A DNA stretch of 53,803 bases from a virus (IMGVR_UViG_3300012943_000028:304642-358444), one strand, 5' to 3'. Counted from the first letter of the stretch, positions 9,691-25,209 are shown. Notes: generated by a model not told the origin, from the sequence alone. Program-made: numbers and translations.

Positions 9691-9938
9691 TAGAAGTTCA
9701 CCACGTCTAGTAGTAGACCAATGGTGTCACCACCATTGGCAAGATGATCGTACAAAGCCAGGCAGATGAGAAGTCGAGACATCTGAGAATCGAAGTCACC
9801 ATCCGGTGCCCTTTCACGAACGCTGATCAACGTCATGAGGGTTGAAACCTCACGCTTGAAAAACTGCACATCACGCCTGTAGTAGGCGGCCTGAATGTCA
9901 GGTGTCCAGCTCTTGTTGTAGGCGTCTGAATGGAGCAT
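9690..9938 (-). CDS. hypothetical protein
   Basis: ATG follows TAAATA; start trimmed. Confidence 0.55.
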   Translation of the reverse strand: MLHSDAYNKSWTPDIQAAYYRRDVQFFKREVSTLMTLISVRERAPDGDFDSQMSRLLICLALYDHLANGGDTIGLLLDVVNF

Positions 9939-9945
9939 GCGGTAT

Positions 9946-11652
9946 TTATTTCTTCTTGAAGTACTTAGCCATGGTAACAGGGTTGAACTTGTTTTCTGAC
10001 AGCAGGTGCCTCCGGAATGTCTCCACCGTCTCACCGTTGCTGAGCTCTATCCTTCTGGCATCACCTGGAGTCCCGACCTTGAAGTTCCATGCACCGCCGA
10101 TCTCATCAACGGCATATTCCAGGACCGCCTTGAAGTCTCCGATCTCCTGATTCATGGTCAAAACGGTAGCGTTGACCTGTTTTCCGCCGAGGTCAGTCGG
10201 TATCGTTTCATTGCTGTACCCAAGTTCGATGGCGATCGAGACTGGGCTACGAGCTGGCAGAGCGGCGACCTCGTCCTTCTTCAAAGGCGCCTTCCACTCG
10301 TAGCGCTCTTTCTTTTGAGGTGAGGTTTCTGGTTTGAAGAGGTGACTTATCGGCACCTCTACCAGCTCACCATCTATCTCTTCATGCTTGAAGCTTACCG
10401 TAGGATCAAGCTCAAACTGGATGTTCGACGTGTTGATCTCAATTGTGTCCATGCGCTGGAAGCCGGGCGCTAGACCAAGGATTGTGGTGCCACCCGTCCT
10501 GGACTTCAGAATTGAGTACAGCTCGGCAAAGAGCCCCTGCACCTGATAGAGTGGGCGCCGGTAGTAGTTGTATGGGTAGACGTAGATGTCAGAAAGGTCC
10601 ACAACCATAGATGGCTCATGATCAATCGACTTGAAGAACTCTTCTGCCTGAAAGCTGAAGAGGTCCACCCTGTTGAATTCTACGGTTATTCCCTCGACAT
10701 GGCAAATGAGCGCGTGCTGGTCTCTAGTCCAATCGTCGGCAATTCGCGCGCTTGGAAAGCGCTTCTTGAACTCAGCAATGATCTCACCATACGTTGCCGG
10801 TGCTGTGACACCGAAGATCATTCGCTGTAGCTCAAGCGCTAGCGGGTTGTTGTCATAGATGATGACGCGCTTTGCATGATAGTGCTCAGCAAGGGATAGC
10901 GCCTTAAGCCCTTGAGCTGGCGCTACAACTATGTCCGCAACGTTGCTTCCATGCTCAGTAGCATCATCGTCATAGGCGTAGATGGTTGATAGTGGAACGG
11001 TGAGGAAGCGCTTCTCAAACTCTGTCTCTGAGTGAATCTCATCTAGAGCCGATGCGGTTGATAGAAAGTGAAAGCTGTCATGTGGCGTGACATATCCCAG
11101 CGACGTCACCTTGCCATAGACCTCAAGCTGCTTGATGACCATAGCAGCGCCGTTCTGTCCACACACTCCAGGCACAAAAACCGGTTCACCGTCAGCTATG
11201 GTGATCTCATATGGGTGGTGGTCCTTTGGTGACTTCACCGTTGTCGTGAACTGAGGGCCCTGCTTCAGCTTGAAGTTGTCGTAGAGCGGACGGCCATTGG
11301 CGCGCCACAGTGGTAGGTTGAAGAACAGGCAGCGCTTGTCGACGATGACGTAGTCTTCTGCAAGCTTGAAAAAGCCATAGAAGATGGCGTCAGGTTTTTC
11401 TGTGAGCTTGTCGAGGGCCTCAAAGAAGCTGGTGGAGAACGGGATGAAGCCGCCAGACAGAACAAGAAGGTAGCTTGTTGTGCAGCGGTCGATTGCATCA
11501 TCAACGCTCTTCGCAATGATGATCTTCTCATTGAACTTTTGGGCGTTGAGCTTCTGGCTGAAGTACTCACAGAAGCGGATCGTTAGGTCGGTTCGCCAAC
11601 CATCGTCTGATGCGATGATGGCAAGCGTGATGTTCTCTGGTAGTCGATCCAT
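9946..11652 (-). CDS. hypothetical protein
   Basis: 568-aa ORF, late motif upstream. Confidence 0.85.
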   Translation of the reverse strand: MDRLPENITLAIIASDDGWRTDLTIRFCEYFSQKLNAQKFNEKIIIAKSVDDAIDRCTTSYLLVLSGGFIPFSTSFFEALDKLTEKPDAIFYGFFKLAEDYVIVDKRCLFFNLPLWRANGRPLYDNFKLKQGPQFTTTVKSPKDHHPYEITIADGEPVFVPGVCGQNGAAMVIKQLEVYGKVTSLGYVTPHDSFHFLSTASALDEIHSETEFEKRFLTVPLSTIYAYDDDATEHGSNVADIVVAPAQGLKALSLAEHYHAKRVIIYDNNPLALELQRMIFGVTAPATYGEIIAEFKKRFPSARIADDWTRDQHALICHVEGITVEFNRVDLFSFQAEEFFKSIDHEPSMVVDLSDIYVYPYNYYRRPLYQVQGLFAELYSILKSRTGGTTILGLAPGFQRMDTIEINTSNIQFELDPTVSFKHEEIDGELVEVPISHLFKPETSPQKKERYEWKAPLKKDEVAALPARSPVSIAIELGYSNETIPTDLGGKQVNATVLTMNQEIGDFKAVLEYAVDEIGGAWNFKVGTPGDARRIELSNGETVETFRRHLLSENKFNPVTMAKYFKKK

Positions 11653-11683
11653 TATGGCACCTTGTTAGGATGCCATATTTATC

Positions 11684-11995
11684 TCACGGGATGGTAGCTC
11701 TGATGCTTTCCCACTTGCGCGTCTTGAGGATCAGCTGCGACTCGAGGAAGTCAGCAAGCTGCTCATCTGTGTGGTCAGGGTACGCACGAACGAGAACGCC
11801 GATGACGGTGTTGATCACGTCGGCAACCTCGCCAACCAACGGCTCCTTCATGACCTTGTGCTGCAGGAAACCTTCGTGGTGGTTGACGGCCTCGCACAGC
11901 TCGCCGTACTCCTCGCCGAGCTTGATCTGCATGTTCGCCAGCGGGAACGTCGACGCACGAGCGGTGCGGATGATGTAGAGGATGGTGTCTCTCAT
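11684..11995 (-). CDS. MazG-like NTP pyrophosphohydrolase
   Basis: KLGEEYGEL...EVADV motif. Confidence 0.8.
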   Translation of the reverse strand: MRDTILYIIRTARASTFPLANMQIKLGEEYGELCEAVNHHEGFLQHKVMKEPLVGEVADVINTVIGVLVRAYPDHTDEQLADFLESQLILKTRKWESIRATIP

Positions 11996-12417
11996 ATGCG
12001 CGGGTTGTTCCTGATGAAGTAATCTTCGATGATACGCCAGTCCTCGATGTAGTCGAAGCCGGCTTTGTCGTCGACGAGGATGTTGAAGTAGAACTTCGTG
12101 TCAAAGTTGCCAGAGGCGGTGTTCGCAACCTCGGGGTTGTGGTTGAAGTAGGAGACCTTGATCCCCTCCTTCGCAAAGAAGTCGACGATGTCCTGCTCTT
12201 CGTCAGCGTGCACTGAAGACCAGAGGATGATGACAGTCTCAGGCCGGGCTGCAATCTCACGAAGAGCGTTGATCACGTGTTGCCCAAGCCAGGCGTAGTT
12301 GCCCTTGCCGTAGGTGCTGCGCAGGCAGGTGTCGTGAAGGTCGATGGCCCAGTAGATGCGGTCCCAGTTCTTCTTGCGGGCCGTGTTGTAGGCCTTCTCG
12401 ATGGCGTTGATGATCAT
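11992..12417 (-). CDS. HAD-superfamily hydrolase
   Basis: IYWAIDLHDT motif I, C-terminal VDDKA; RBS AGGAG. Confidence 0.75.
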   Translation of the reverse strand: MIINAIEKAYNTARKKNWDRIYWAIDLHDTCLRSTYGKGNYAWLGQHVINALREIAARPETVIILWSSVHADEEQDIVDFFAKEGIKVSYFNHNPEVANTASGNFDTKFYFNILVDDKAGFDYIEDWRIIEDYFIRNNPRI

Positions 12418-12800
12418 CGTTTTTCTCCTAGTGCAGCGTTCAGCTCGTCGAGAGTGATGTTGATGTCCCAGTCGTGCGTTCTGAACAGCGACGGGTACTG
12501 GTGTTCTTGGTCGACATACGAGATGATCTCTTTGTCGCCGATGAAGATGCGGATCAGGTCTGCACGAATGTGGCGCCAGAACGTGAAGCGCACCGAACCG
12601 ACGGTGAAGAGCTTGTCGAAGGCAAAGTCCTTGATGTCTGGGTACAGATACTTCGTCGTGGCGGTGTTCCAGTTCTTCTTGATCAGCGACTGGCACAGCG
12701 TGATGATGGCAAGGTTTGCCTCGTAGGCAGCCTTCTTCGCTACCTTTGCCGCAGCAGCTTCACGTCGTTCTTTGATGTGGCGCTTGATCCAACCGATCAT
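12414..12800 (-). CDS. hypothetical protein
   Basis: overlap-coupled ORF. Confidence 0.75.
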   Translation of the reverse strand: MIGWIKRHIKERREAAAAKVAKKAAYEANLAIITLCQSLIKKNWNTATTKYLYPDIKDFAFDKLFTVGSVRFTFWRHIRADLIRIFIGDKEIISYVDQEHQYPSLFRTHDWDINITLDELNAALGEKR

Positions 12801-13636
12801 TTGTTCAGCTCCTCAAGAGCAAGTACCAGATCGGTGATGTTGGCGGCATAGAAGCCAGCCGAGTTGATCGTGTTGATCTCAACGATCTTGAAACCGTCGG
12901 CTGTCTGACAGATGTCCAGCACGAAAGCATCAGCGGGGCGCCATCCGCTGTTTGACGCCTCGAGCGTGATGCCTCTGACCCCGCTTGTAAGATCGGTCTT
13001 CAGTACCGTCGTGGCGAACCAATCTGCCTCACGCGGAATATCCCAGTCCTTGTTGCTGTAGATGACCTTTCCGCCGCGCTTGTAGAGTGAGCGCGTGATG
13101 ATCTTTTGGTCAACGATCCAGTAGCGCCACTCTGCGATGATGTTCGTTGGGCGGCAGATCTGCACCTTCGTGTCAGGTGTCAAGCCATTGCCGTAGTCGG
13201 CCCCATCAACGATGCTGTTAGCCCACGTGTTCCACTCACCCGCCTCAAACACGCGGCCAGCAAAATACTTGCTGTCGTCGATTGGACGAATGAATGCCGG
13301 GAGGTCCCAAGGAATGTTGGCATCGCGCAGCGGCATGACGGTGGCGCTGTAGTTGAGGAGCATGTCGCCCCAGTGAAGCTTCTGTACCTCGAAGTTCTGG
13401 TCGAAGAGGTCATAGACGCCAGGCGTCCAACCATTCTTCTTCGCAGCGTGGCGCAGCGAGTACGAGCCGAAGCAGATGACCTTCGTGCCCGATTCGTTGT
13501 GAACTTCAGGGATCAGCTCACCAACAAACGGCACGACCTTGTGCACGCTGTACGGAAGGTTGAAGCGCTCAAGGGCGCCAACGAGGTTCTCCCACTCACT
13601 CTCTTTGAACAGGTTTTCTTGAAGTATCCAGTGCAT
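12797..13636 (-). CDS. ATP-grasp domain protein
   Basis: FIRPIDDSKYFAG, EWRYWIV, FVLDI..KIVEINTINSAGFY. Confidence 0.8.
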   Translation of the reverse strand: MHWILQENLFKESEWENLVGALERFNLPYSVHKVVPFVGELIPEVHNESGTKVICFGSYSLRHAAKKNGWTPGVYDLFDQNFEVQKLHWGDMLLNYSATVMPLRDANIPWDLPAFIRPIDDSKYFAGRVFEAGEWNTWANSIVDGADYGNGLTPDTKVQICRPTNIIAEWRYWIVDQKIITRSLYKRGGKVIYSNKDWDIPREADWFATTVLKTDLTSGVRGITLEASNSGWRPADAFVLDICQTADGFKIVEINTINSAGFYAANITDLVLALEELNK

Positions 13637-13725
13637 GCCTACATTGTAACATGTCCAACCTGAAACGAAAACAGGACGGTGAGAGGTCCACCGTCCTGTC
13701 CCGTGCTCATTATGTAAAATGAGGC

Positions 13726-14688
13726 TTAGGCCACGATCTCCAGCCCGGTACCGCACTCACTGCAGAACTTGGCGATGGACTTGTTGAGGTGGTTGCAGGT
13801 AACGCAGCGCTGCTTGCTCTTGACAGTCACTGGCTTTGTCACCTTCACAGCACCAACCTCACCGAGGAGCTTGATCACCATGGCGTGCTTCACACCGTCG
13901 AGAGCGCCGATGTAGCCATCGGTGAACTGCTGGTTTGAAACAGAGCCAGGTGCCGTGACACCCGCATCGTTGAGTGAGGCGTTCATCAGGAATACGCTTG
14001 CGTCGGCCTTTACCTCGGCGCTGTAGTTCACCTTTGCGCCACGCGAGCGTGAACGATCGGCGCTCTTCGTGATGTTGTCTTCCCACTTTGGCGACTCACC
14101 GCTTGCACCCAGCGAACCGCTGTTTGTTGCTGTGAACGAGACATTGTTGGAAGCATGACCACTGCTTGAGCCGATCAGCTCATCGCTTGCGCCACGAGCA
14201 ACGCCACTACCGTAGTAGATGCCGGTGCCCATGTACGGGTACCAAGGACGCTTGTAGTACGGCCATGGATCGCCATACCACGGCGTTGGAACGCTGTAGT
14301 AGTCCTTCACTGGCACCTGCTCACGCTCGAACTCGTATTCGATGCGGATCAGACCGTCTTCGACTTGAATGCCACCTCGACCGGCCTCGACCTTGGCGTT
14401 GCGCTCAATGAACTTGAAGCGGTTGCCCTGGCTCATGTTGTGGCCCTTCAAGAAGCGCTCGATGTCGACAGAGCCATGAGCGGGGACGATGAAGCCCTTG
14501 CCGTCGGCAATGTCCTTACCATCGATCTCGATCTTGACGAGACAGCGGACTGAGTTGAGGTTCTTGATGAATAACGAGTATTCGCTTCCGAATGGAAGTC
14601 TTACGGTGTCCCCCGTTTCACGAAGGACCGTGCCATTTACTTTGACAGCTATGGCGAGCTTGTTCGAGTACATCACTATTTTCTCCAC
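13726..14688 (-). CDS. conserved hypothetical protein with C-terminal zinc ribbon
   Basis: CVTC...FCSECG. Confidence 0.8.
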   Translation of the reverse strand: MEKIVMYSNKLAIAVKVNGTVLRETGDTVRLPFGSEYSLFIKNLNSVRCLVKIEIDGKDIADGKGFIVPAHGSVDIERFLKGHNMSQGNRFKFIERNAKVEAGRGGIQVEDGLIRIEYEFEREQVPVKDYYSVPTPWYGDPWPYYKRPWYPYMGTGIYYGSGVARGASDELIGSSSGHASNNVSFTATNSGSLGASGESPKWEDNITKSADRSRSRGAKVNYSAEVKADASVFLMNASLNDAGVTAPGSVSNQQFTDGYIGALDGVKHAMVIKLLGEVGAVKVTKPVTVKSKQRCVTCNHLNKSIAKFCSECGTGLEIVA

Positions 14689-14898: not shown

Positions 14899-15990
14899 TC
14901 ATTGCTCTGCTTTTTCTAGTGCCGCCAAAAGCTTAGCATCGATGGGGCAATTTTCTATTTGCTTTACTCCACACCCCCAACGCCCGCCTTTGATCAAACC
15001 AAGTTCTTCTCCGTTGGCCTGAAACCACTCGTTCAATACTGGGACAACTGACTTCGCGTCAAAGCTTTTCTTGGGTAGCAGCGCATGGTCGAGGTGTTTT
15101 GATGTAGTGCCATATGAGAACACCGGCCAACGTCTAATTGGTCCGCTGATGAAAAAGATTTTCGGCCCCTCTTTGGTATCATGAACTCGCGGCCACTTTT
15201 TCCGCTGCGATTCATCTACCTGCACAAATTTTCCTTCCTTGGCGTATGGAACACCATTCTTTGGGTTCTCGATGGCAGTGCGCAACGGGGCAGAACCTAC
15301 GGTCGCCTTGAACCATTCGCCAAGTGTGCCACTTGGCTCATAATCAATGAGCCAAGTAAAACCCCCTGATTCAAACAGGGTCTTCGGCCCACGGTTCGTC
15401 TTGATCTTCTTCTGCTTAGCACCCTTCTGCCAACGAAAAATCAACGTATCAACCGCAGCATTTTCCCATTCGAGTGTTTCATTCAAGAATATCGCATCAG
15501 TGAATGCGCCAGTTTCGACCATTCGCTTGCGCAGCTCTTTACCTCTGCTTGTGTCAGAGAACATCGTTGATGGGACGATGAAGATCAATTCGCCGTTCGG
15601 TTCCAGGTGATCGACGCACTTGTCGATAAAGTGCAGATACGCATTCGCGGTTCGCGGCAGACATCCCCTCCACCCAGCAAACCACTCCTCAGTGAGGAGA
15701 CGACCGGCTACATATGGCGGATTGCCAATGATGGTATCGGCGCGGACATCAAACGTTGAAACTTCAAAAAAGTTTGATACGACGTACTTGTGCTTAAGCT
15801 CTACTGGGATTACTGATTCATCTATTTCGATGGCAACACAGTCATCAAGAGCCTCAACAAAACGACCGCTACCTGCTGATGGCTCGAGCGTCAGCCCATT
15901 GTTGCGCTTCATGGAGATCATCTTCTCGACGATCTGCTTAGGAGTCCAGTGTTGGCCTAGGTCGCCAACGCCCTGATTGGTATTCTTCAT
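14899..15990 (-). CDS. amino (N6-adenine type) DNA methyltransferase
   Basis: GQHWTP, LEPSAGSGRF (motif I), IIGNPPY (motif IV). Confidence 0.9.
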   Translation of the reverse strand: MKNTNQGVGDLGQHWTPKQIVEKMISMKRNNGLTLEPSAGSGRFVEALDDCVAIEIDESVIPVELKHKYVVSNFFEVSTFDVRADTIIGNPPYVAGRLLTEEWFAGWRGCLPRTANAYLHFIDKCVDHLEPNGELIFIVPSTMFSDTSRGKELRKRMVETGAFTDAIFLNETLEWENAAVDTLIFRWQKGAKQKKIKTNRGPKTLFESGGFTWLIDYEPSGTLGEWFKATVGSAPLRTAIENPKNGVPYAKEGKFVQVDESQRKKWPRVHDTKEGPKIFFISGPIRRWPVFSYGTTSKHLDHALLPKKSFDAKSVVPVLNEWFQANGEELGLIKGGRWGCGVKQIENCPIDAKLLAALEKAEQ

Positions 15991-19766: not shown

Positions 19767-20108
19767 CTATTTTAGCACCTTGGAGCTGTCTTGTATACGG
19801 CGTCCTGCACGAAAATCATCAATGTAGGCAACGTTCTCAACCGTCGTTCCATCGATGATGTCGAGCAGCCTCTTGGCGGAAGTTTCCATGCGGTGAAGGT
19901 TGACGCTGATCTGCTGGAAGCAGTAGGCCATGAACTCCTGGTTCGTCATCGTCTCACGCTTCATGTCGAGCTGGTACTGAAGCGCAAGACCGGCCATCCT
20001 CTGCTGCTCTGGCAGAGATTCAAGGTAGGTCTTGATGATCTCCCAGCGAGCTTTTTCGAAGGCAACAGGATCGTTTGAAAGTTGTGAGAGCTTGTCAAAG
20101 TCGAACAT
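19767..20108 (-). CDS. DUF3135-like protein
   Basis: FDFDKLSQL..DPVAFEK..LQYQLD pattern; AGGAGG RBS. Confidence 0.65.
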   Translation of the reverse strand: MFDFDKLSQLSNDPVAFEKARWEIIKTYLESLPEQQRMAGLALQYQLDMKRETMTNQEFMAYCFQQISVNLHRMETSAKRLLDIIDGTTVENVAYIDDFRAGRRIQDSSKVLK

Positions 20109-20121
20109 GTTGCCTCCTAGT

Positions 20122-20916
20122 TTACAGCGGTGTGAAGCTGAAGCTCTTGACCCACATGTAGCGCTCAACGTCAGGGGTTGCAGTGCCACCCCAATCAACG
20201 CTGTTGGTGCCCCAGTGGTTGAACATGAAAGGCGCAAGCTCAGAAGGAACTACCTTCGTGTGCTTGCAGACCTCAACGCCATTGATGTAGAACGTGGTGC
20301 CCTGTGGAGTCCATACGAACTTGTACTTCTTGAACTCGACATGAGGGGCAGGAGTCGTAGGAACCTTGACTGATTCATTCGGATTGGATGCAAGTTTCCA
20401 TGAGGTAAACTGCGCCAGGCCAGAGCGGCTTCCACCTTCAACTTCCATGTCGATCTCAGTGATGGAGTCCTTTGCGTAGTTGAAGCAGCCGGTGATCGTA
20501 CCGCTGACTGGGCTTCCAACTTCGGTTGGGCTCTTAGCGGTTGATGAGGCCTTCACCTCAAACTCGTAGGTGCCGTAGCCAAACTTTTCCTTCGTTGCCA
20601 CCTCACCGCCGACAGAGGCTATACCAGCATCAGTCTTCGTCTGCTGCAGCTTGAGGCAGAGCATGCCATTTGAGATGACGGCGTTTGCCTTGATGAACTT
20701 GCCGCCGCCTGGAGCTTCCCAGAACGACACAGTCCACCTGTCAAGGTTGGAGAAGTCTTCAACGAACGTTGGCTGCTTTGGCGCAGCCGGTGGCTCGATG
20801 ACAACTGGCGTTGGCGTTGGAACTTGGGGAGTTGGTCCAGTAGGAACTGGTGAAGGGGCTGGTGCTGCCTTCTTACCGAAGAGCTTTGCCAGAAGATTGC
20901 TGATCCACTTTTTCAT
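20122..20916 (-). CDS. glycoside hydrolase family 16 protein with Pro-rich N-terminal linker
   Basis: catalytic EIDME (ExDxE), KFGYGTYE, FVWTPQG. Confidence 0.85.
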   Translation of the reverse strand: MKKWISNLLAKLFGKKAAPAPSPVPTGPTPQVPTPTPVVIEPPAAPKQPTFVEDFSNLDRWTVSFWEAPGGGKFIKANAVISNGMLCLKLQQTKTDAGIASVGGEVATKEKFGYGTYEFEVKASSTAKSPTEVGSPVSGTITGCFNYAKDSITEIDMEVEGGSRSGLAQFTSWKLASNPNESVKVPTTPAPHVEFKKYKFVWTPQGTTFYINGVEVCKHTKVVPSELAPFMFNHWGTNSVDWGGTATPDVERYMWVKSFSFTPL

Positions 20917-20940: not shown

Positions 20941-21468
20941 TTATCCGCCAGGAGCCCGCATGGTGGTTATCTTGATTCTTGAGTTTGAGCAGCAATCAAC
21001 GAGAAGATCGAAGACATCGGGCATCACGTTGATGCAGCCTGCTGTGACGCCGATTCTGTTCTTGATCTTGTCACTAGTGATGCGCTTCAGGCGGTTCTGA
21101 CCAGGCACGCTGATGACTCGATGAATGGACCAGATTGACGTCGCATTTTCCCTGTACGCGAGGATGTCTCCACCGTACGCAGGAACCATGATGCGATAGC
21201 GCTTGAGGTTGTACTCACCTGGCAGCGTGTCCTTGCCGACAAGAGCGTTGAAGCAGTGAGTAGATTCCCAGCCACGCGGGATGAAGCAGATTTTGGCCTC
21301 ATCAATGAACACGTAGACGTTCAGCTCTCCACGTGTGCCAATGACGACGACCTCATCGAGTTCTTGGAGGTACTCGCGTGGGATGATGTCAGGCGGCGGA
21401 GACAACACATCCTCGGCCAGGGCTACTGGCGCGAGGATGGTTAGAAGGACAGCGATGAGTCTCAACAT
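20941..21468 (-). CDS. secreted YkuD-type L,D-transpeptidase-like protein
   Basis: signal peptide; SIH...TAGCINV (H...C) motif. Confidence 0.65.
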   Translation of the reverse strand: MLRLIAVLLTILAPVALAEDVLSPPPDIIPREYLQELDEVVVIGTRGELNVYVFIDEAKICFIPRGWESTHCFNALVGKDTLPGEYNLKRYRIMVPAYGGDILAYRENATSIWSIHRVISVPGQNRLKRITSDKIKNRIGVTAGCINVMPDVFDLLVDCCSNSRIKITTMRAPGG

Positions 21469-22206: not shown

Positions 22207-22277
22207 TAGGGACTCCTTGTGACAAAGTAAACAAACTTAGAAACTAGATCATATCACGCTACAAATCTACAGTAAAC

Positions 22278-23276
22278 CTATGCTCGATCAAACCAGCGGT
22301 TGGTCTCGATTCGTCCGACGGTCCTGATGAAAACGTAGACCAAGATGAGCGAGATCACGAAGCACGAGATTTGCCCAACCTGCGAGTTGAAGTTGTACGC
22401 GCCGATGGCGCCACCGACAAGGAATGAAGCGTTGATGGCGGTGTTGTGGTACAGGTACACAGTCACTGCGTTGCTGTTCACCGTTGTGATGATGCGCTTC
22501 AGCGCGTTCGAGATTTTCGACAGGTCTGGGTTGATGGACAGCAGCACGAAGGCAATGCCAAACGACATCAGCGAGTACCCGATCGGATTTCCCTCGAGAG
22601 TTCCGGTGTCGTACGACACCATGACGGCGCAGGCGGCACACACGACCATCACGAGGTACGAGATGTACTTAGGCAGAGCGAGAATCTTGCCGTCAGCTCG
22701 TGCGAAGCCGAGCGCCCAGCAGCCAGAGAAGCAGAGCACATCGTACCACGTTTCACCGAGGATGGTGTCTTGATATGGCAAGAAGTGAGTGTACGCTATG
22801 AGCGCACCGACAAACCCGAACACCGCAAACCATGACAGCCGACGATAGATGAACAGCATGAACGGTGTGAGGGCAAGAAGCCACAGGTACGCTGAGATGT
22901 ACCACGTCACGACGATGGCGCCATTGGCGTACTCGTTGTCAAGGTTCCAAGAAAGCCGCTCGTATGGGAACAACCATGAGGTTGACATGGTCAGCTCAGT
23001 CCCGGCGCCGGCAGAGTAGATGTAGCCTGCGATGAACATGATCAGCGCAAACCCATACCACACCGGCAGCAGCCGCCCAAGCCGTGACAGAATGACCTCT
23101 CCAAACTGCTTCTTGTCAAGCGAGTTGGCCATGAACCAACCACCGAGGGCGAACATGACGCCTAGCGACGGGATGTAGGACAGGAACGGCCAGCTGAAGA
23201 AGTGGAACACAACGATGCGAAGGATCGCACCACTGCGCAGCAGGTCTGGATAGAGCTGTCTACTTGGTGCATTCAT
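22278..23276 (-). CDS. acyltransferase family 3 (OafA/IcaC-like) membrane protein
   Basis: DLLRSGAILRIVVFH, WYISAY, about 10 TM segments. Confidence 0.85.
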   Translation of the reverse strand: MNAPSRQLYPDLLRSGAILRIVVFHFFSWPFLSYIPSLGVMFALGGWFMANSLDKKQFGEVILSRLGRLLPVWYGFALIMFIAGYIYSAGAGTELTMSTSWLFPYERLSWNLDNEYANGAIVVTWYISAYLWLLALTPFMLFIYRRLSWFAVFGFVGALIAYTHFLPYQDTILGETWYDVLCFSGCWALGFARADGKILALPKYISYLVMVVCAACAVMVSYDTGTLEGNPIGYSLMSFGIAFVLLSINPDLSKISNALKRIITTVNSNAVTVYLYHNTAINASFLVGGAIGAYNFNSQVGQISCFVISLILVYVFIRTVGRIETNRWFDRA

Positions 23277-24072
23277 TGGCGTCAGCCAGTCCGGTTTCGA
23301 CGCTCTTGATGAAGAAGTGCAGATCGCACCTGCCGTCAACGACCGTTCTGCGAATGTAGAGTGGGTCCTGGCCGACATCGTTCTTCGTCATCTTCAGGCA
23401 CTGGTCCCATGGAATTTCGGGTGCGTTCGGAACCTGGCACCACGTTTGGCTGACCGTCATGGCGCCCTTGAACCCGATGCGCCTTGCAGTGTCAACGAAC
23501 GATTGGTTGTACTCGCCGTAGGGCCACACGATCGTTGCGATCTGCTTCTTCAGCTGCTTCTCGATGATGTCCTTGGATGCGATGATCTCAGCGGCTGCAG
23601 GATAGTCGGTCGTGCCGCTGTGAAGGTGCGAGTGCGAGTACATGTGTGACGCAATCTCGTGGTCCTTTGCGATCAGCCGCACCTGGTCCCAGTTCATGTA
23701 GGCGGGGTACTTGGCATCGGGGATGCGCGCGATGATGGCGAACACACCCTTGTACTTGAACTCCTTGAGGATTGACAGCGTGTTCAGCTGATCGACCCAG
23801 CCATCGTCAAAGGAAAGAACCACCGTCTTGGCAGGCAGCGGCTTCTTGCCGGTCATCATGGTTGCGAGCTCGGCAGCGGTGATCGTCTTGTAGCCTTGCA
23901 GGTGCAGCCAGTTCATCTGCTCTCTGAACTGGTTGACAGTGACGGTTGTTTCACCTGGCTGGGCTTCGGCGGTGAACTCACTGACCACTCGGTGGTACAT
24001 CAGCACGGGAATTGCTTCAGCTGCAGCAAGCTGGCTGAACAACATGGCGCACACAACGATTAGCTTTTTCAT
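23260..24072 (-). CDS. exported polysaccharide deacetylase (CE4, IcaB/PgaB-like)
   Basis: signal peptide; VLMYH, SFDDG, HxxSH, WPYGEY. Confidence 0.92.
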   Translation of the reverse strand: MKKLIVVCAMLFSQLAAAEAIPVLMYHRVVSEFTAEAQPGETTVTVNQFREQMNWLHLQGYKTITAAELATMMTGKKPLPAKTVVLSFDDGWVDQLNTLSILKEFKYKGVFAIIARIPDAKYPAYMNWDQVRLIAKDHEIASHMYSHSHLHSGTTDYPAAAEIIASKDIIEKQLKKQIATIVWPYGEYNQSFVDTARRIGFKGAMTVSQTWCQVPNAPEIPWDQCLKMTKNDVGQDPLYIRRTVVDGRCDLHFFIKSVETGLADANECTK

Positions 24073-25106
24073 CAGTACCTCGCTACCTTATTCCACGTCA
24101 AAATTGTTTTCCTCAGCACGACGATCTCAATGAAGGATCGAATGTGCACGAACATGTTGACCATCTGAAGCCCGACGATCTGCGGGAACTTGTAGATCAC
24201 GTCGAGCCGCCTCGTTCGTATCGCAACGTAGACGTTGACGGCGAACCTTAGCACGAGCCACATCAAGATGATCATCATGATGCCCTTGCCCATGAGCGAT
24301 GGCACAACGAGGGCGAAGATTCCCATGGCGATAACGTCAGTGAACAGCTCGATGCAGAGGTACATCATGTAGATGTCGATGGCCTGCTTCTTGCGGAGTG
24401 AGAACACGCCGTGCTTCAGCACGATCTGCCAGAACCCACGGTACCACCGTGAAATTTGCTTGATGTAGTCTCGAAGCGTGCACGGGTCTTGTGTGATGAC
24501 GACGGCCTTCGAGACGAACTTGACGCGCGAGCGCAGGCGCTGCGTCTGCATCGTGAGGTCCATGTCCTCAGCGAGGGTGTCGTTGTCGATGCTGAGCTTG
24601 CTGAGGATGTCGGAGCGGTACATCGATGCGCAGCCAGGCGATACGAAGATCAGGCCGAAGTTGCTCTGCCCCTCCTTCGTGACGTCCTGGCCGAACGTGT
24701 ACTCGACAGCTCGATGCGCAGAATAGATGTGGTCTTCTTGAGATGACTTGACTCGCCCTACGAACAGGCCGATGTCTGGGTGCGCAATGGCGTTGCTGAT
24801 GAGAACGGCCCTGAAGTTCGGATCGACGATGGTGTCGCCGTCGAGAAAGATGATGTACTCGTGCTTTGCGTACAGGTCAAAGTGCTTGAGCGCAAAACGC
24901 TGAGCCATCGCCTTGCCGCCATTTTGCTCCACACGGCAGCTGTTGACCGGCAGCGATTGGAGAATGGCGTAGGTGTCGTCGGTTGACCGGTCATCGACGA
25001 AGTAGAGCTCGTCCTTGGTGAAACCAGCCTCGAACAACGATTCAACGGTCCTACGAATCACGATTGATTCATTGTAGACCGCAATCACAGCGCAAACTTT
25101 GCCCAA
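24072..25106 (-). CDS. processive GT2 glycosyltransferase (IcaA/PgaC/NodC-like)
   Basis: DDRSTD, DGD, AED, QISRW (QxxRW); C-terminal TM helices; TTG start. Confidence 0.92.
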   Translation of the reverse strand: MGKVCAVIAVYNESIVIRRTVESLFEAGFTKDELYFVDDRSTDDTYAILQSLPVNSCRVEQNGGKAMAQRFALKHFDLYAKHEYIIFLDGDTIVDPNFRAVLISNAIAHPDIGLFVGRVKSSQEDHIYSAHRAVEYTFGQDVTKEGQSNFGLIFVSPGCASMYRSDILSKLSIDNDTLAEDMDLTMQTQRLRSRVKFVSKAVVITQDPCTLRDYIKQISRWYRGFWQIVLKHGVFSLRKKQAIDIYMMYLCIELFTDVIAMGIFALVVPSLMGKGIMMIILMWLVLRFAVNVYVAIRTRRLDVIYKFPQIVGLQMVNMFVHIRSFIEIVVLRKTILTWNKVARY

Positions 25107-25209
25107 GGGACACCCTTACGTCATCATACTTAATCAGGATTATACCTTAGGTCAATCAGGAAGTACACAGCTACCCCGCTCTGACCGGGGCAGTTATGTT
25201 AAATGGAGG

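Follow-up and report, generated by a model that had tools for sequence, protein, structure and literature searches.

An uncultivated phage is represented by a virus record of 358,444 bp with direct terminal repeats, and in its final 53.8 kb we identified a module of seven genes that runs along the minus strand from position 25106 to position 20122. The whole stretch that was analysed, 53,803 nucleotides (IMGVR_UViG_3300012943_000028:304642-358444), is called the window below. We read the module, with a probability of roughly 0.6, as a compact, phage-borne, synthase-dependent polysaccharide system: a core of synthase, small partner and barrel, accompanied by tailoring genes. Its product would most likely be a partly deacetylated polymer containing N-acetylglucosamine (GlcNAc), judged by the nearest characterised relatives of the synthase and by the type of its deacetylase. 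An earlier note on this DNA had seen three co-oriented, overlapping genes: a glycosyltransferase of family 2 (GT2) with the D,D,D,QxxRW signature, an exported carbohydrate esterase of family 4 (CE4) and a membrane acyltransferase (AT3), likened as a set to the staphylococcal ica and the enterobacterial pga operons. Open reading frames (ORFs), Pfam matches and motifs agree with those three genes and their positions, and the genes are indeed phage-borne, lying in a virus record and being conserved in other phages. The set itself did not hold: the conserved unit is made of the GT2, a barrel and a small membrane protein, then a protein with a putative L,D-transpeptidase fold, the CE4 and a glycoside hydrolase of family 16 (GH16).

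The GT2 gene starts with a TTG codon, with AAGGG 6 nt upstream of it. Its protein matches the Pfam models Glycos_transf_2 (86 bits) and Glyco_trans_2_3 (69 bits), both well above the curated cut-offs. The catalytic residues D39, D89-x-D91, E180-D181 and Q217-x-x-R220-W221 are invariant across the 27 homologues of the family alignment (A1). A cytosolic GT-A domain comes first, then three membrane helices in the C-terminal part, and WNKVxRY is conserved at the C-terminus; no N-terminal membrane helix is present, either in the sequence or in the alignment to IcaA and PgaC.

The AlphaFold2 (AF2) model of the GT2, with a mean predicted local distance difference test (pLDDT) of 88.8, joins the GT-A domain to interface helices and a membrane-helix bundle. 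Among solved structures, Foldseek places it closest to the hyaluronan synthases of a Chlorella virus and of Xenopus, with template-modelling (TM) scores of 0.72-0.76 (0.75 for the Chlorella-virus enzyme). Chitin synthases, Chs1 included, and BcsA come next; overall, TM scores span 0.6-0.76 with E-values down to 4e-15, and the matches take in the membrane helices. Among Swiss-Prot models the best are IcaA and PgaC (E 5e-20, TM 0.76-0.79, with IcaA on top at 0.79), then YdaM, NodC and HasA. These proteins align only from their own residue 46-75 onwards, so the phage GT2 lacks their N-terminal helices. By its motifs and modelled fold, the GT2 is a membrane-embedded synthase of the processive type, as the earlier note had proposed, with IcaA/PgaC, NodC and hyaluronan synthases as its nearest named relatives by profile and fold; that it makes a polymer and translocates it is predicted.

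Sequence comparison indicates that it is not an equivalog of PgaC/IcaA or of NodC. The NCBIfam model PgaC_IcaA (TIGR03937) gives 103.1 bits against a cut-off of 422.3, over model positions 46-309 of 407, and the NodC model (TIGR04242) 48.6 bits against 550; for all 27 family members these two models are the top matches, PgaC_IcaA being first. The profile of the phage family, in turn, scores PgaC at 92 bits, IcaA at 88, NodC at 82-89 and BcsA at 32, compared with 246-412 bits for uncharacterised enzymes of the candidate phyla radiation (CPR). In a tree of 112 sequences (IQ-TREE), the phage proteins form one clade with an SH-like approximate likelihood-ratio (SH-aLRT) support of 96, which includes a contig binned with Polaromonas. 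The sister of this clade is an Adlerbacteria sequence, with Saccharibacteria and Microgenomates joining next (SH-aLRT 97), whereas PgaC and IcaA together (SH-aLRT 100) group with another set and NodC sits on a separate branch. Nesting of the phage proteins inside PgaC/IcaA was not seen in this tree, whose deep branching order is uncertain because the branches are long. Phylogeny, proposed earlier as a check on the ica/pga likeness, thus places the phage enzyme beside those of CPR bacteria.

These cellular relatives, 33-40% identical to the phage GT2, occur in GT2-CE4-GH16 sets of CPR bacteria, Saccharibacteria among them, and an Adlerbacteria locus has a barrel, a small membrane protein and a CE4 alongside its GT2. 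They differ from the phage module in being carried by cellular genomes with uncharacterised products, and the saccharibacterial GT2 copies have N-terminal extensions. Within the phage enzyme, the segment VSPGCASMYR is nearer to GPCAMYRR of NodC than to SGVIAAFRR of PgaC. The closest characterised enzymes, namely IcaA/PgaC, NodC, hyaluronan synthases and chitin synthases, all use UDP-GlcNAc.

The CE4 gene overlaps the GT2 stop codon by 1 nt and encodes a protein with a Sec-type signal peptide that matches Polysacc_deac_1 (PF01522) with 70 bits, well above the cut-off. Its top NCBIfam match is the N-terminal part of PgaB (101.5 bits against a cut-off of 321.9; positions 4-148 of 621). The nearest PDB sequences are the PgaB N-domains of Aggregatibacter and E. 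coli (4u10, 1.7e-20, and 3vus), followed by BpsB and IcaB; in both NCBIfam and PDB comparisons the protein is closer to PNAG (poly-β-1,6-GlcNAc) deacetylases than to the peptidoglycan deacetylases PgdA and PdaA. H27 of the YH motif, D89, D90, H143, H147 and the WPYG segment align with PgaB and IcaB, and the YH histidine, DD pair, HxxxH pair and WPYG are kept as in PgaB in all phage copies; for the roles of these residues we presume those of the published PgaB structure. The C-terminal hydrolase or second domain of PgaB is absent from the 270 residues. From its sequence, then, the CE4 is an N-deacetylase of the PgaB/IcaB type with intact catalytic residues, not a PgaB equivalog.

The third component of interest, orf165, was outside the set of genes first noticed. 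Its AF2 model (pLDDT 85) shows six to seven long strands, with an aromatic-rich strand at the C-terminus. In an exhaustive VIA-align comparison the top matches are small outer-membrane barrels: the OmpA transmembrane domain (Z 9.6), OprF (9.0), NspA (8.6) and PagL (8.5), OpcA also being among matches that range from 9.6 to 8.3. Atlas language-model features likewise place orf165 with outer-membrane barrel families. Other searches were negative: a HMMER profile search of the PDB with the family alignment (A2) gave only chance-level matches, Foldseek found no match of the model in the PDB at E ≤ 0.001, and Pfam returned nothing at E ≤ 10, leaving a barrel family without a Pfam model.

The orf165 homodimer was predicted with a score of 0.76, the best of three controls reaching 0.00. 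Of 30 proteins whose solved structure is a pair of one and the same chain, 20 reach this mark; of 23 solved as single chains, 1 does. These counts apply only roughly, because a self-made alignment was used for orf165. The homodimer runs share at least 98% of their contacts at a pLDDT of at least 86. In the predicted pair, strand one of each copy pairs with the final strand of its partner, the arrangement of a two-chain barrel. Altogether, the models suggest that orf165 is an outer-membrane barrel, possibly one built from two chains.

A profile search of 1.84 billion representative sequences found 364 relatives of orf165 (clustered at 50%), as single domains, tandem doubles and forms fused to LysM or SPOR. 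Among the cellular relatives, tandem doubles are about 270 aa long, and proteins of 440-550 aa have an N-terminal LysM (P0152, P0157, P0160, P0164, P0168, P0176) or SPOR (P0159) domain followed by two barrel-like repeats. One relative with a tandem domain holds the position of the porin in a cellular pga-like operon on a JGI metagenome contig (L111:1-11262). This operon encodes a 434-aa GT2, a 916-aa protein with CE4 and GH-like parts in the layout of PgaB, three further CE4 proteins and a GH5; no PgaA-type porin was seen in the stretch. A 49-aa ORF before the tandem barrel gene was considered as a counterpart of orf70 (described below) and set aside, as the orf70 motif is absent from it.

We compared the module with 30 related loci: 25 IMG/VR contigs, the contigs on which two database homologues are encoded, and two loci found in species genomes. 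The comparison used tblastn and then family hidden Markov models on six-frame ORFs. In all 30 loci that reach past the GT2 gene, the gene directly after it is an orf165 homologue. Homologues of orf175, the L,D-transpeptidase-fold protein, are found in 18 of the 31 loci that include the window, CE4 in 15 and GH16 in 11; these are minimum counts because several loci are incomplete or duplicates of one phage. The usual gene order is GT2, barrel, small membrane protein, orf175, CE4, GH16.

The GT2 family has about 250 members, mostly on phage-like metagenomic contigs, and the contigs with homologues are 100-360 kb long. The core of the module is kept in dozens of other large metagenomic phages. 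Cultured phages present another picture: in 50,697 GenBank phage records, nothing exceeds 28% identity to the GT2, and the barrel has no match at all. The earlier remark that such an operon is unusual for a jumbo phage therefore stands for cultured phages only. Across 185,579 species genomes, only two loci (L031 and L032) reach 40% identity to the GT2.

The first of these, L031, is a 17-kb contig binned with a Polaromonas metagenome-assembled genome. Its GT2 is of the phage type (48% identity) and falls inside the phage clade. The contig also encodes a barrel and a small membrane protein, followed by a 1186-aa protein (9933-13493), a second barrel copy (13480-13986), CE4 and GH16. We take it to be, probably, a piece of a phage that ended up in a bacterial bin, and it hints at a betaproteobacterial host for that relative. 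Together with the Sec signal peptides and the outer-membrane type of the barrel, it suggests that the hosts are probably Gram-negative and proteobacterial. The second, L032:7992-10550, is assigned to Candidatus Adlerbacteria and flanked by genes for S12, S7 and EF-G; it contains a GT2, a barrel, a small membrane protein and a CE4-like gene.

Searches of the literature turned up no account of a phage module of such composition. An apparent match to 'PgaC' in a jumbophage paper was the DOI string pgac171, and a match to COG1215 concerned bacterial genomic islands, different from the phage module.

Table 1. Genes and putative control signals of the module, with window coordinates.
Feature	Coordinates	Strand	Basis
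GT2 synthase, predicted processive, 344 aa	24072..25106	minus	Pfam, NCBIfam, alignment A1, AF2, Foldseek
CE4 deacetylase, Sec-exported, PgaB/IcaB type by sequence, 270 aa	23260..24072	minus	Pfam, NCBIfam, PDB sequences, residue alignment
AT3 membrane acyltransferase, 332 aa from ATG 23276	22278..23276	minus	Pfam PF01757, PHROG 3333
orf165, signal peptide and predicted small beta-barrel, C-terminal YWFGWNLK, 165 aa	21709..22206	minus	linkage, A2, AF2, VIA-align, Atlas
orf70, single-pass, 70 aa	21486..21698	minus	sequence reading, locus comparison
orf175, signal peptide, Pro-rich linker, putative L,D-transpeptidase (YkuD)-fold domain	20941..21468	minus	PHROG 38499, A3, Atlas
GH16, lichenase type, E-I-D-M-E catalytic motif	20122..20916	minus	Pfam PF00722, PDB sequences
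Likely operon start (suggestive)	25139..25190	minus	GC-rich hairpin 25190..25174, perfect TATAAT 25144..25139, sequence reading
Promoter-like site	22248..22276	minus	TTTACT, 17 nt, TG-n-TATGAT; consensus match only

In the small membrane protein, orf70, an N-terminal NxxVNFxMR(F/W)P motif is combined with a single membrane helix and a Pro-rich tail, the tail being usual in its relatives. In each of the 21 loci that were checked and are long enough, L031 and L032 among them, the gene after the barrel gene encodes a protein with this motif. The earlier statement that no icaD/pgaD-like gene is obvious was correct as to homology: no PgaD or IcaD homologue was found, and orf70 is unrelated to either. 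It overlooked this conserved single-pass protein, which lies two genes downstream of AT3 and outside the three genes first noticed. By analogy, orf70 is a candidate for a small synthase partner with a PgaD/IcaD-like role.

The residues H116 and T142-x-G144-C145-x-N147 of orf175 are invariant in its family, which corresponds to PHROG 38499, of unknown function. The putative fold assignment comes from Atlas (feature scores 0.92-0.93, TM 0.61/0.77 to YkuD clusters); Pfam PF03734 is unreported even at E 10, and a HMMER search of the PDB with the family profile (A3) gave chance-level matches only. One related phage (L015) has two copies of the gene for the L,D-transpeptidase-fold protein, at 11784-12134 after the barrel gene and at 15059-15424 just before GH16. 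In another (L012), an in-frame stop codon between the orf70 and orf175 counterparts was considered as a read-through site and rejected: it is a TAA with an ATG two codons later, that is, two ordinary genes.

GH16 matches PF00722 with 49.8 bits against a cut-off of 22. The nearest PDB sequences are 1,3-1,4-beta-glucanases (3wvj, 4.5e-10; 3i4i, 2e-07), whose EIDIE aligns with the EIDME of the phage enzyme. Its N-terminus (20916-20770) consists of a short basic amphipathic helix and a Pro/Ala-rich linker, and a Sec signal peptide is absent. The homologues in L009, L011, L012 and L017 have the same basic helix followed by a long Pro/Ala/Thr-rich linker, while the L015 protein has a true membrane helix in their place. 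GH16 might thus be membrane-tethered in the cytoplasm and meet the polymer only at lysis. Directly after GH16, and overlapping its end as an ORF, lies a gene for a DUF3135 (PF11333) protein (19767-20237, minus strand); we left it out of the module because it is syntenic in the closest relatives only and not in L004.

The AT3 gene is the one member restricted to a single lineage. Its ORF spans 23378..22278, and both the homologues and the recorded gene call begin at Met35, so that the true start is most likely the ATG listed in Table 1, with a 17-nt overlap with CE4. Acyl_transf_3 (PF01757) is matched with 66.5 bits, well above the cut-off, and PHROG 3333 is an O-acetyltransferase family. AT3 lies inside the module only in the window and in its 79-83%-identical relatives L002, L003 and L006, where CE4 and AT3 stand between the GT2 and barrel genes. 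In other, more distant phage contigs, the regions within 7 kb of homologues with 48-49% identity contain neither a GT2 nor a CE4 gene. No similarity to IcaC was detected (BLASTP against S. arlettae IcaC, E 0.34), nor any NCBIfam match. Restriction to one lineage points to a local insertion and not to an equivalent of IcaC, the role in which AT3 had been cast.

As to control signals, the perfect TATAAT of Table 1 lies 33 nt before the GT2 start, behind a GC-rich hairpin; its -35 element is weak and a consensus scan called no full sigma-70 promoter here. The combination is suggestive of an operon start, on a reading of the sequence. A second, promoter-like site lies directly 3' of the AT3 stop codon and is followed by a strong AAGGAG, 7 nt before the barrel gene. 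Over the scan as a whole, promoter and terminator consensus sites were not above chance (3 promoter-like sites found, 2.6 expected). A mini-ORF on the minus strand (25127-25116; ATG ATG ACG TAA) ends 9 nt before the GT2 TTG and overlaps AAGGG; it may be due to chance or may be a small translational control element. The start differs in a relative with 83% identity, whose GT2 begins with an ATG three codons further upstream (MCILGK...).

We propose the following pathway for the module. The GT2, held in the inner membrane by its three C-terminal helices, would take a host UDP-sugar, most likely UDP-GlcNAc, and build a beta-linked chain, elongating it processively and threading it across the membrane. 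The small protein orf70 probably completes the synthase, and may replace the N-terminal helices of IcaA, PgaC and NodC. In the periplasm, the Sec-exported CE4 would take off part of the acetyl groups and AT3, in the lineage of the window only, may attach O-acyl groups. At the outer membrane, orf165, possibly in the form of a two-chain barrel, would let the chain pass or would anchor it. The lichenase-type GH16 would cut or remodel the chain, and the L,D-transpeptidase-fold protein perhaps takes part in tethering to peptidoglycan.

The benefit to the phage we infer to be a coat on the infected cell, leading to superinfection exclusion, to receptor masking (also on debris) or to clumping. Coating is most plausibly the advantage by analogy with chloroviruses, which coat infected cells with hyaluronan or chitin and bring their own precursor enzymes. 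The hyaluronan synthase A98R of PBCV-1 and the chitin synthase of CVK2 are, like the phage GT2 as we read it, virus-encoded processive GT2 enzymes. They differ in sequence (only 16-18% identity), and the phage host would be bacterial, with a two-membrane envelope. The phage also brings export and tailoring parts (barrel, CE4, GH16) and no precursor enzymes.

In a bolder form of the proposal, which we hold tentatively, large phages of Gram-negative bacteria would encode a complete trans-envelope secretion machine, with parts that textbook systems do not show: a three-helix synthase with a 70-aa subunit, a half-barrel of about 145 residues that pairs into a two-chain channel, and a PgaB-type deacetylase. 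The product would be a chitosan- or PNAG-like coat, a bacterial equivalent of the coats made by chloroviruses, and the signal-less GH16, set free only at lysis, would cut the progeny loose from it.

Several observations weigh against a secretion system of this kind. As a monomer, orf165 resembles closed eight-stranded barrels (OmpA, PagL), too narrow to let a glycan through. Its best match among AlphaFold-DB clusters is the C-terminal domain of a 635-aa GT2 protein, meaning a barrel fused to an inner-membrane enzyme. The GT2-barrel pair also occurs in the Candidatus Adlerbacteria contig, a CPR lineage generally thought to have no outer membrane. One of three points must therefore be reconsidered: the bin to which the contig was assigned, the assumed envelope, or the view of the barrel as an outer-membrane protein. 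The LysM and SPOR fusions suit an OmpA-like wall tether as well as a channel. With only three membrane helices in the GT2, its channel is putative, with or without orf70. GH16 and, in most phages, the L,D-transpeptidase-fold protein are without a signal peptide and may therefore not reach the periplasm before lysis. GlmS and GlmU were looked for and neither is encoded by the phage, which would thus draw on the host pool of UDP-sugars.

The hydrolase also bears on the chemistry of the product. We know of no GH16 that cleaves beta-1,6-GlcNAc and, since the nearest relatives of the phage enzyme are 1,3-1,4-beta-glucanases, a glucan or a beta-1,3/1,4 chain fits it better than PNAG. A beta-glucan, of mixed 1,3;1,4 linkage or curdlan-like, is accordingly the first alternative to consider: GH16 would trim it as BcsZ does, and CE4 and AT3 would handle O-acetyl groups. 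All the solved relatives nearest to GH16 are 1,3-1,4-beta-glucanases, the ExDxE motif is bulge-free, and GT2 and GH16 occur together in many phage loci. Bacterial GT2 synthases for mixed-linkage glucans exist, and some CE4 enzymes are O-deacetylases. The layout recalls the cellulose system BcsA-BcsB-BcsZ-BcsC, which is also synthase-dependent, with a dedicated endoglucanase and an outer-membrane barrel, and there are weak fold and feature hints from orf165 to BcsC/BcsS-type proteins. Yet the phage has no PilZ domain, BcsB or TPR scaffold and does have a CE4, which by sequence and residues is of the PgaB/IcaB N-deacetylase type. The closest characterised relatives of the GT2 use UDP-GlcNAc, BcsA scoring 32 bits against about 90. 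We consider a glucan unlikely.

A true PNAG system, that is, a phage copy of icaADBC or pgaABCD with AT3 as IcaC, is the reading nearest to the earlier note, and we find it improbable. For the synthase, PgaC_IcaA leads the NCBIfam matches throughout the family, and IcaA/PgaC lead the Swiss-Prot folds; for the deacetylase, the nearest proteins are PgaB, BpsB and IcaB, which share YH and WPYG. E. coli PgaABCD is built on a similar plan: an inner-membrane GT2 with a small membrane partner, a periplasmic CE4 (YH, DD, HxxxH, WPYG), a glycoside hydrolase and an outer-membrane beta-barrel. The likeness to ica/pga survives for the CE4, whose residues are kept, and fails for the GT2, which is no orthologue by score, by tree or by its missing N-terminal helices. 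Both enzymes stay far below the cut-offs (103 against 422 bits for GT2, 101 against 322 for CE4), and the phage profile scores PgaC, IcaA and NodC equally (82-92 bits), well under the CPR enzymes. PgaC has two N-terminal helices where the phage GT2 has none, and the latter stands outside the PgaC/IcaA clade; orf70 is not homologous to PgaD. The phage CE4 has no fused C-terminal hydrolase, and the separate enzyme is a lichenase-type GH16, neither a PgaB C-domain nor of the dispersin type. The barrel, of about 145 residues and without a TPR domain, compares with 807 residues for PgaA, and the phage adds an L,D-transpeptidase-fold protein and AT3.

As in staphylococcal IcaADBC, the window has a GT2, a CE4 and a multi-pass membrane protein of acyltransferase type, co-oriented in one cluster. 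The differences from that operon lie in AT3, dissimilar to IcaC and not kept with the GT2 in other phages; in the lack of an IcaD homologue; in the signal peptides and barrel, which indicate a Gram-negative setting; and in NCBIfam scores far below the equivalog cut-offs.

The module could also make a short oligosaccharide or glycolipid, similar to a Nod factor, or a periplasmic glycan, serving as a signal or as an envelope filler. The synthase, deacetylase and membrane acyltransferase of the window mirror nodC, nodB and an O-acetyltransferase (a NolL-type AT3), and three helices may form a channel unsuited to a long chain. On the phage profile NodC equals PgaC/IcaA in score, and it has in common with the phage GT2 a GPCxMYR-type segment, ED, QxxRW, a C-terminal W..R motif and a CE4 partner. 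Against this, the phage clade is separate from NodC in the tree, neither a NodA-type N-acyltransferase nor a NodIJ exporter accompanies it, and the phage CE4, unlike NodB, has an N-terminal YH motif. The universal partners, barrel and small membrane protein, suit the secretion of a chain, and it is hard to see why a pentasaccharide should come with a dedicated endo-type GH16. We regard such a product as very improbable.

Least probable of all is a remodelling of the existing envelope, in which CE4 would deacetylate peptidoglycan, AT3 would O-acetylate peptidoglycan or O-antigen, the L,D-transpeptidase-fold protein would cross-link or tether the barrel to the peptidoglycan, and the GT2 would be a GtrB-like enzyme of serotype conversion that glycosylates a lipid carrier: the best PHROG matches (GtrB-like O-antigen conversion for the GT2, O-acetyltransferase for AT3), the L,D-transpeptidase fold and the fusion of barrel relatives to peptidoglycan-binding LysM or SPOR speak for it, but the GtrB-like match spans only residues 3-114, the full GT2 has QxxRW, interface and membrane helices and can be aligned from end to end with hyaluronan synthase, IcaA and PgaC, and CE4 is closer to PNAG deacetylases than to PgdA/PdaA.

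Synthase-dependent systems (cellulose, PNAG, alginate, Pel) are central to the biology of biofilms and, to our knowledge, all those studied are cellular. Such systems were already known, as were the hyaluronan and chitin synthases of chloroviruses; new, as far as the literature searches and the GenBank phage records show, is a phage module of this composition, with a small barrel and a 70-aa partner. A stripped-down synthase-dependent system would be a recurrent gene set of phages, on contigs of up to 360 kb. If the proposed secretion system is correct, infected cells would alter their own surface while the phage replicates, with a bearing on superinfection exclusion, on the ecology of phage receptors, and on aggregation and carbon export in natural waters and soils. 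With a synthase of 344 aa, a partner of 70 aa and a barrel of 165 aa, it would be the smallest known candidate for a complete Gram-negative machine of glycan synthesis and export, and an attractive model for structural and synthetic biology. It would also open a first way into the GT2-CE4-GH16 sets of Saccharibacteria and other CPR bacteria, which are equally uncharacterised.

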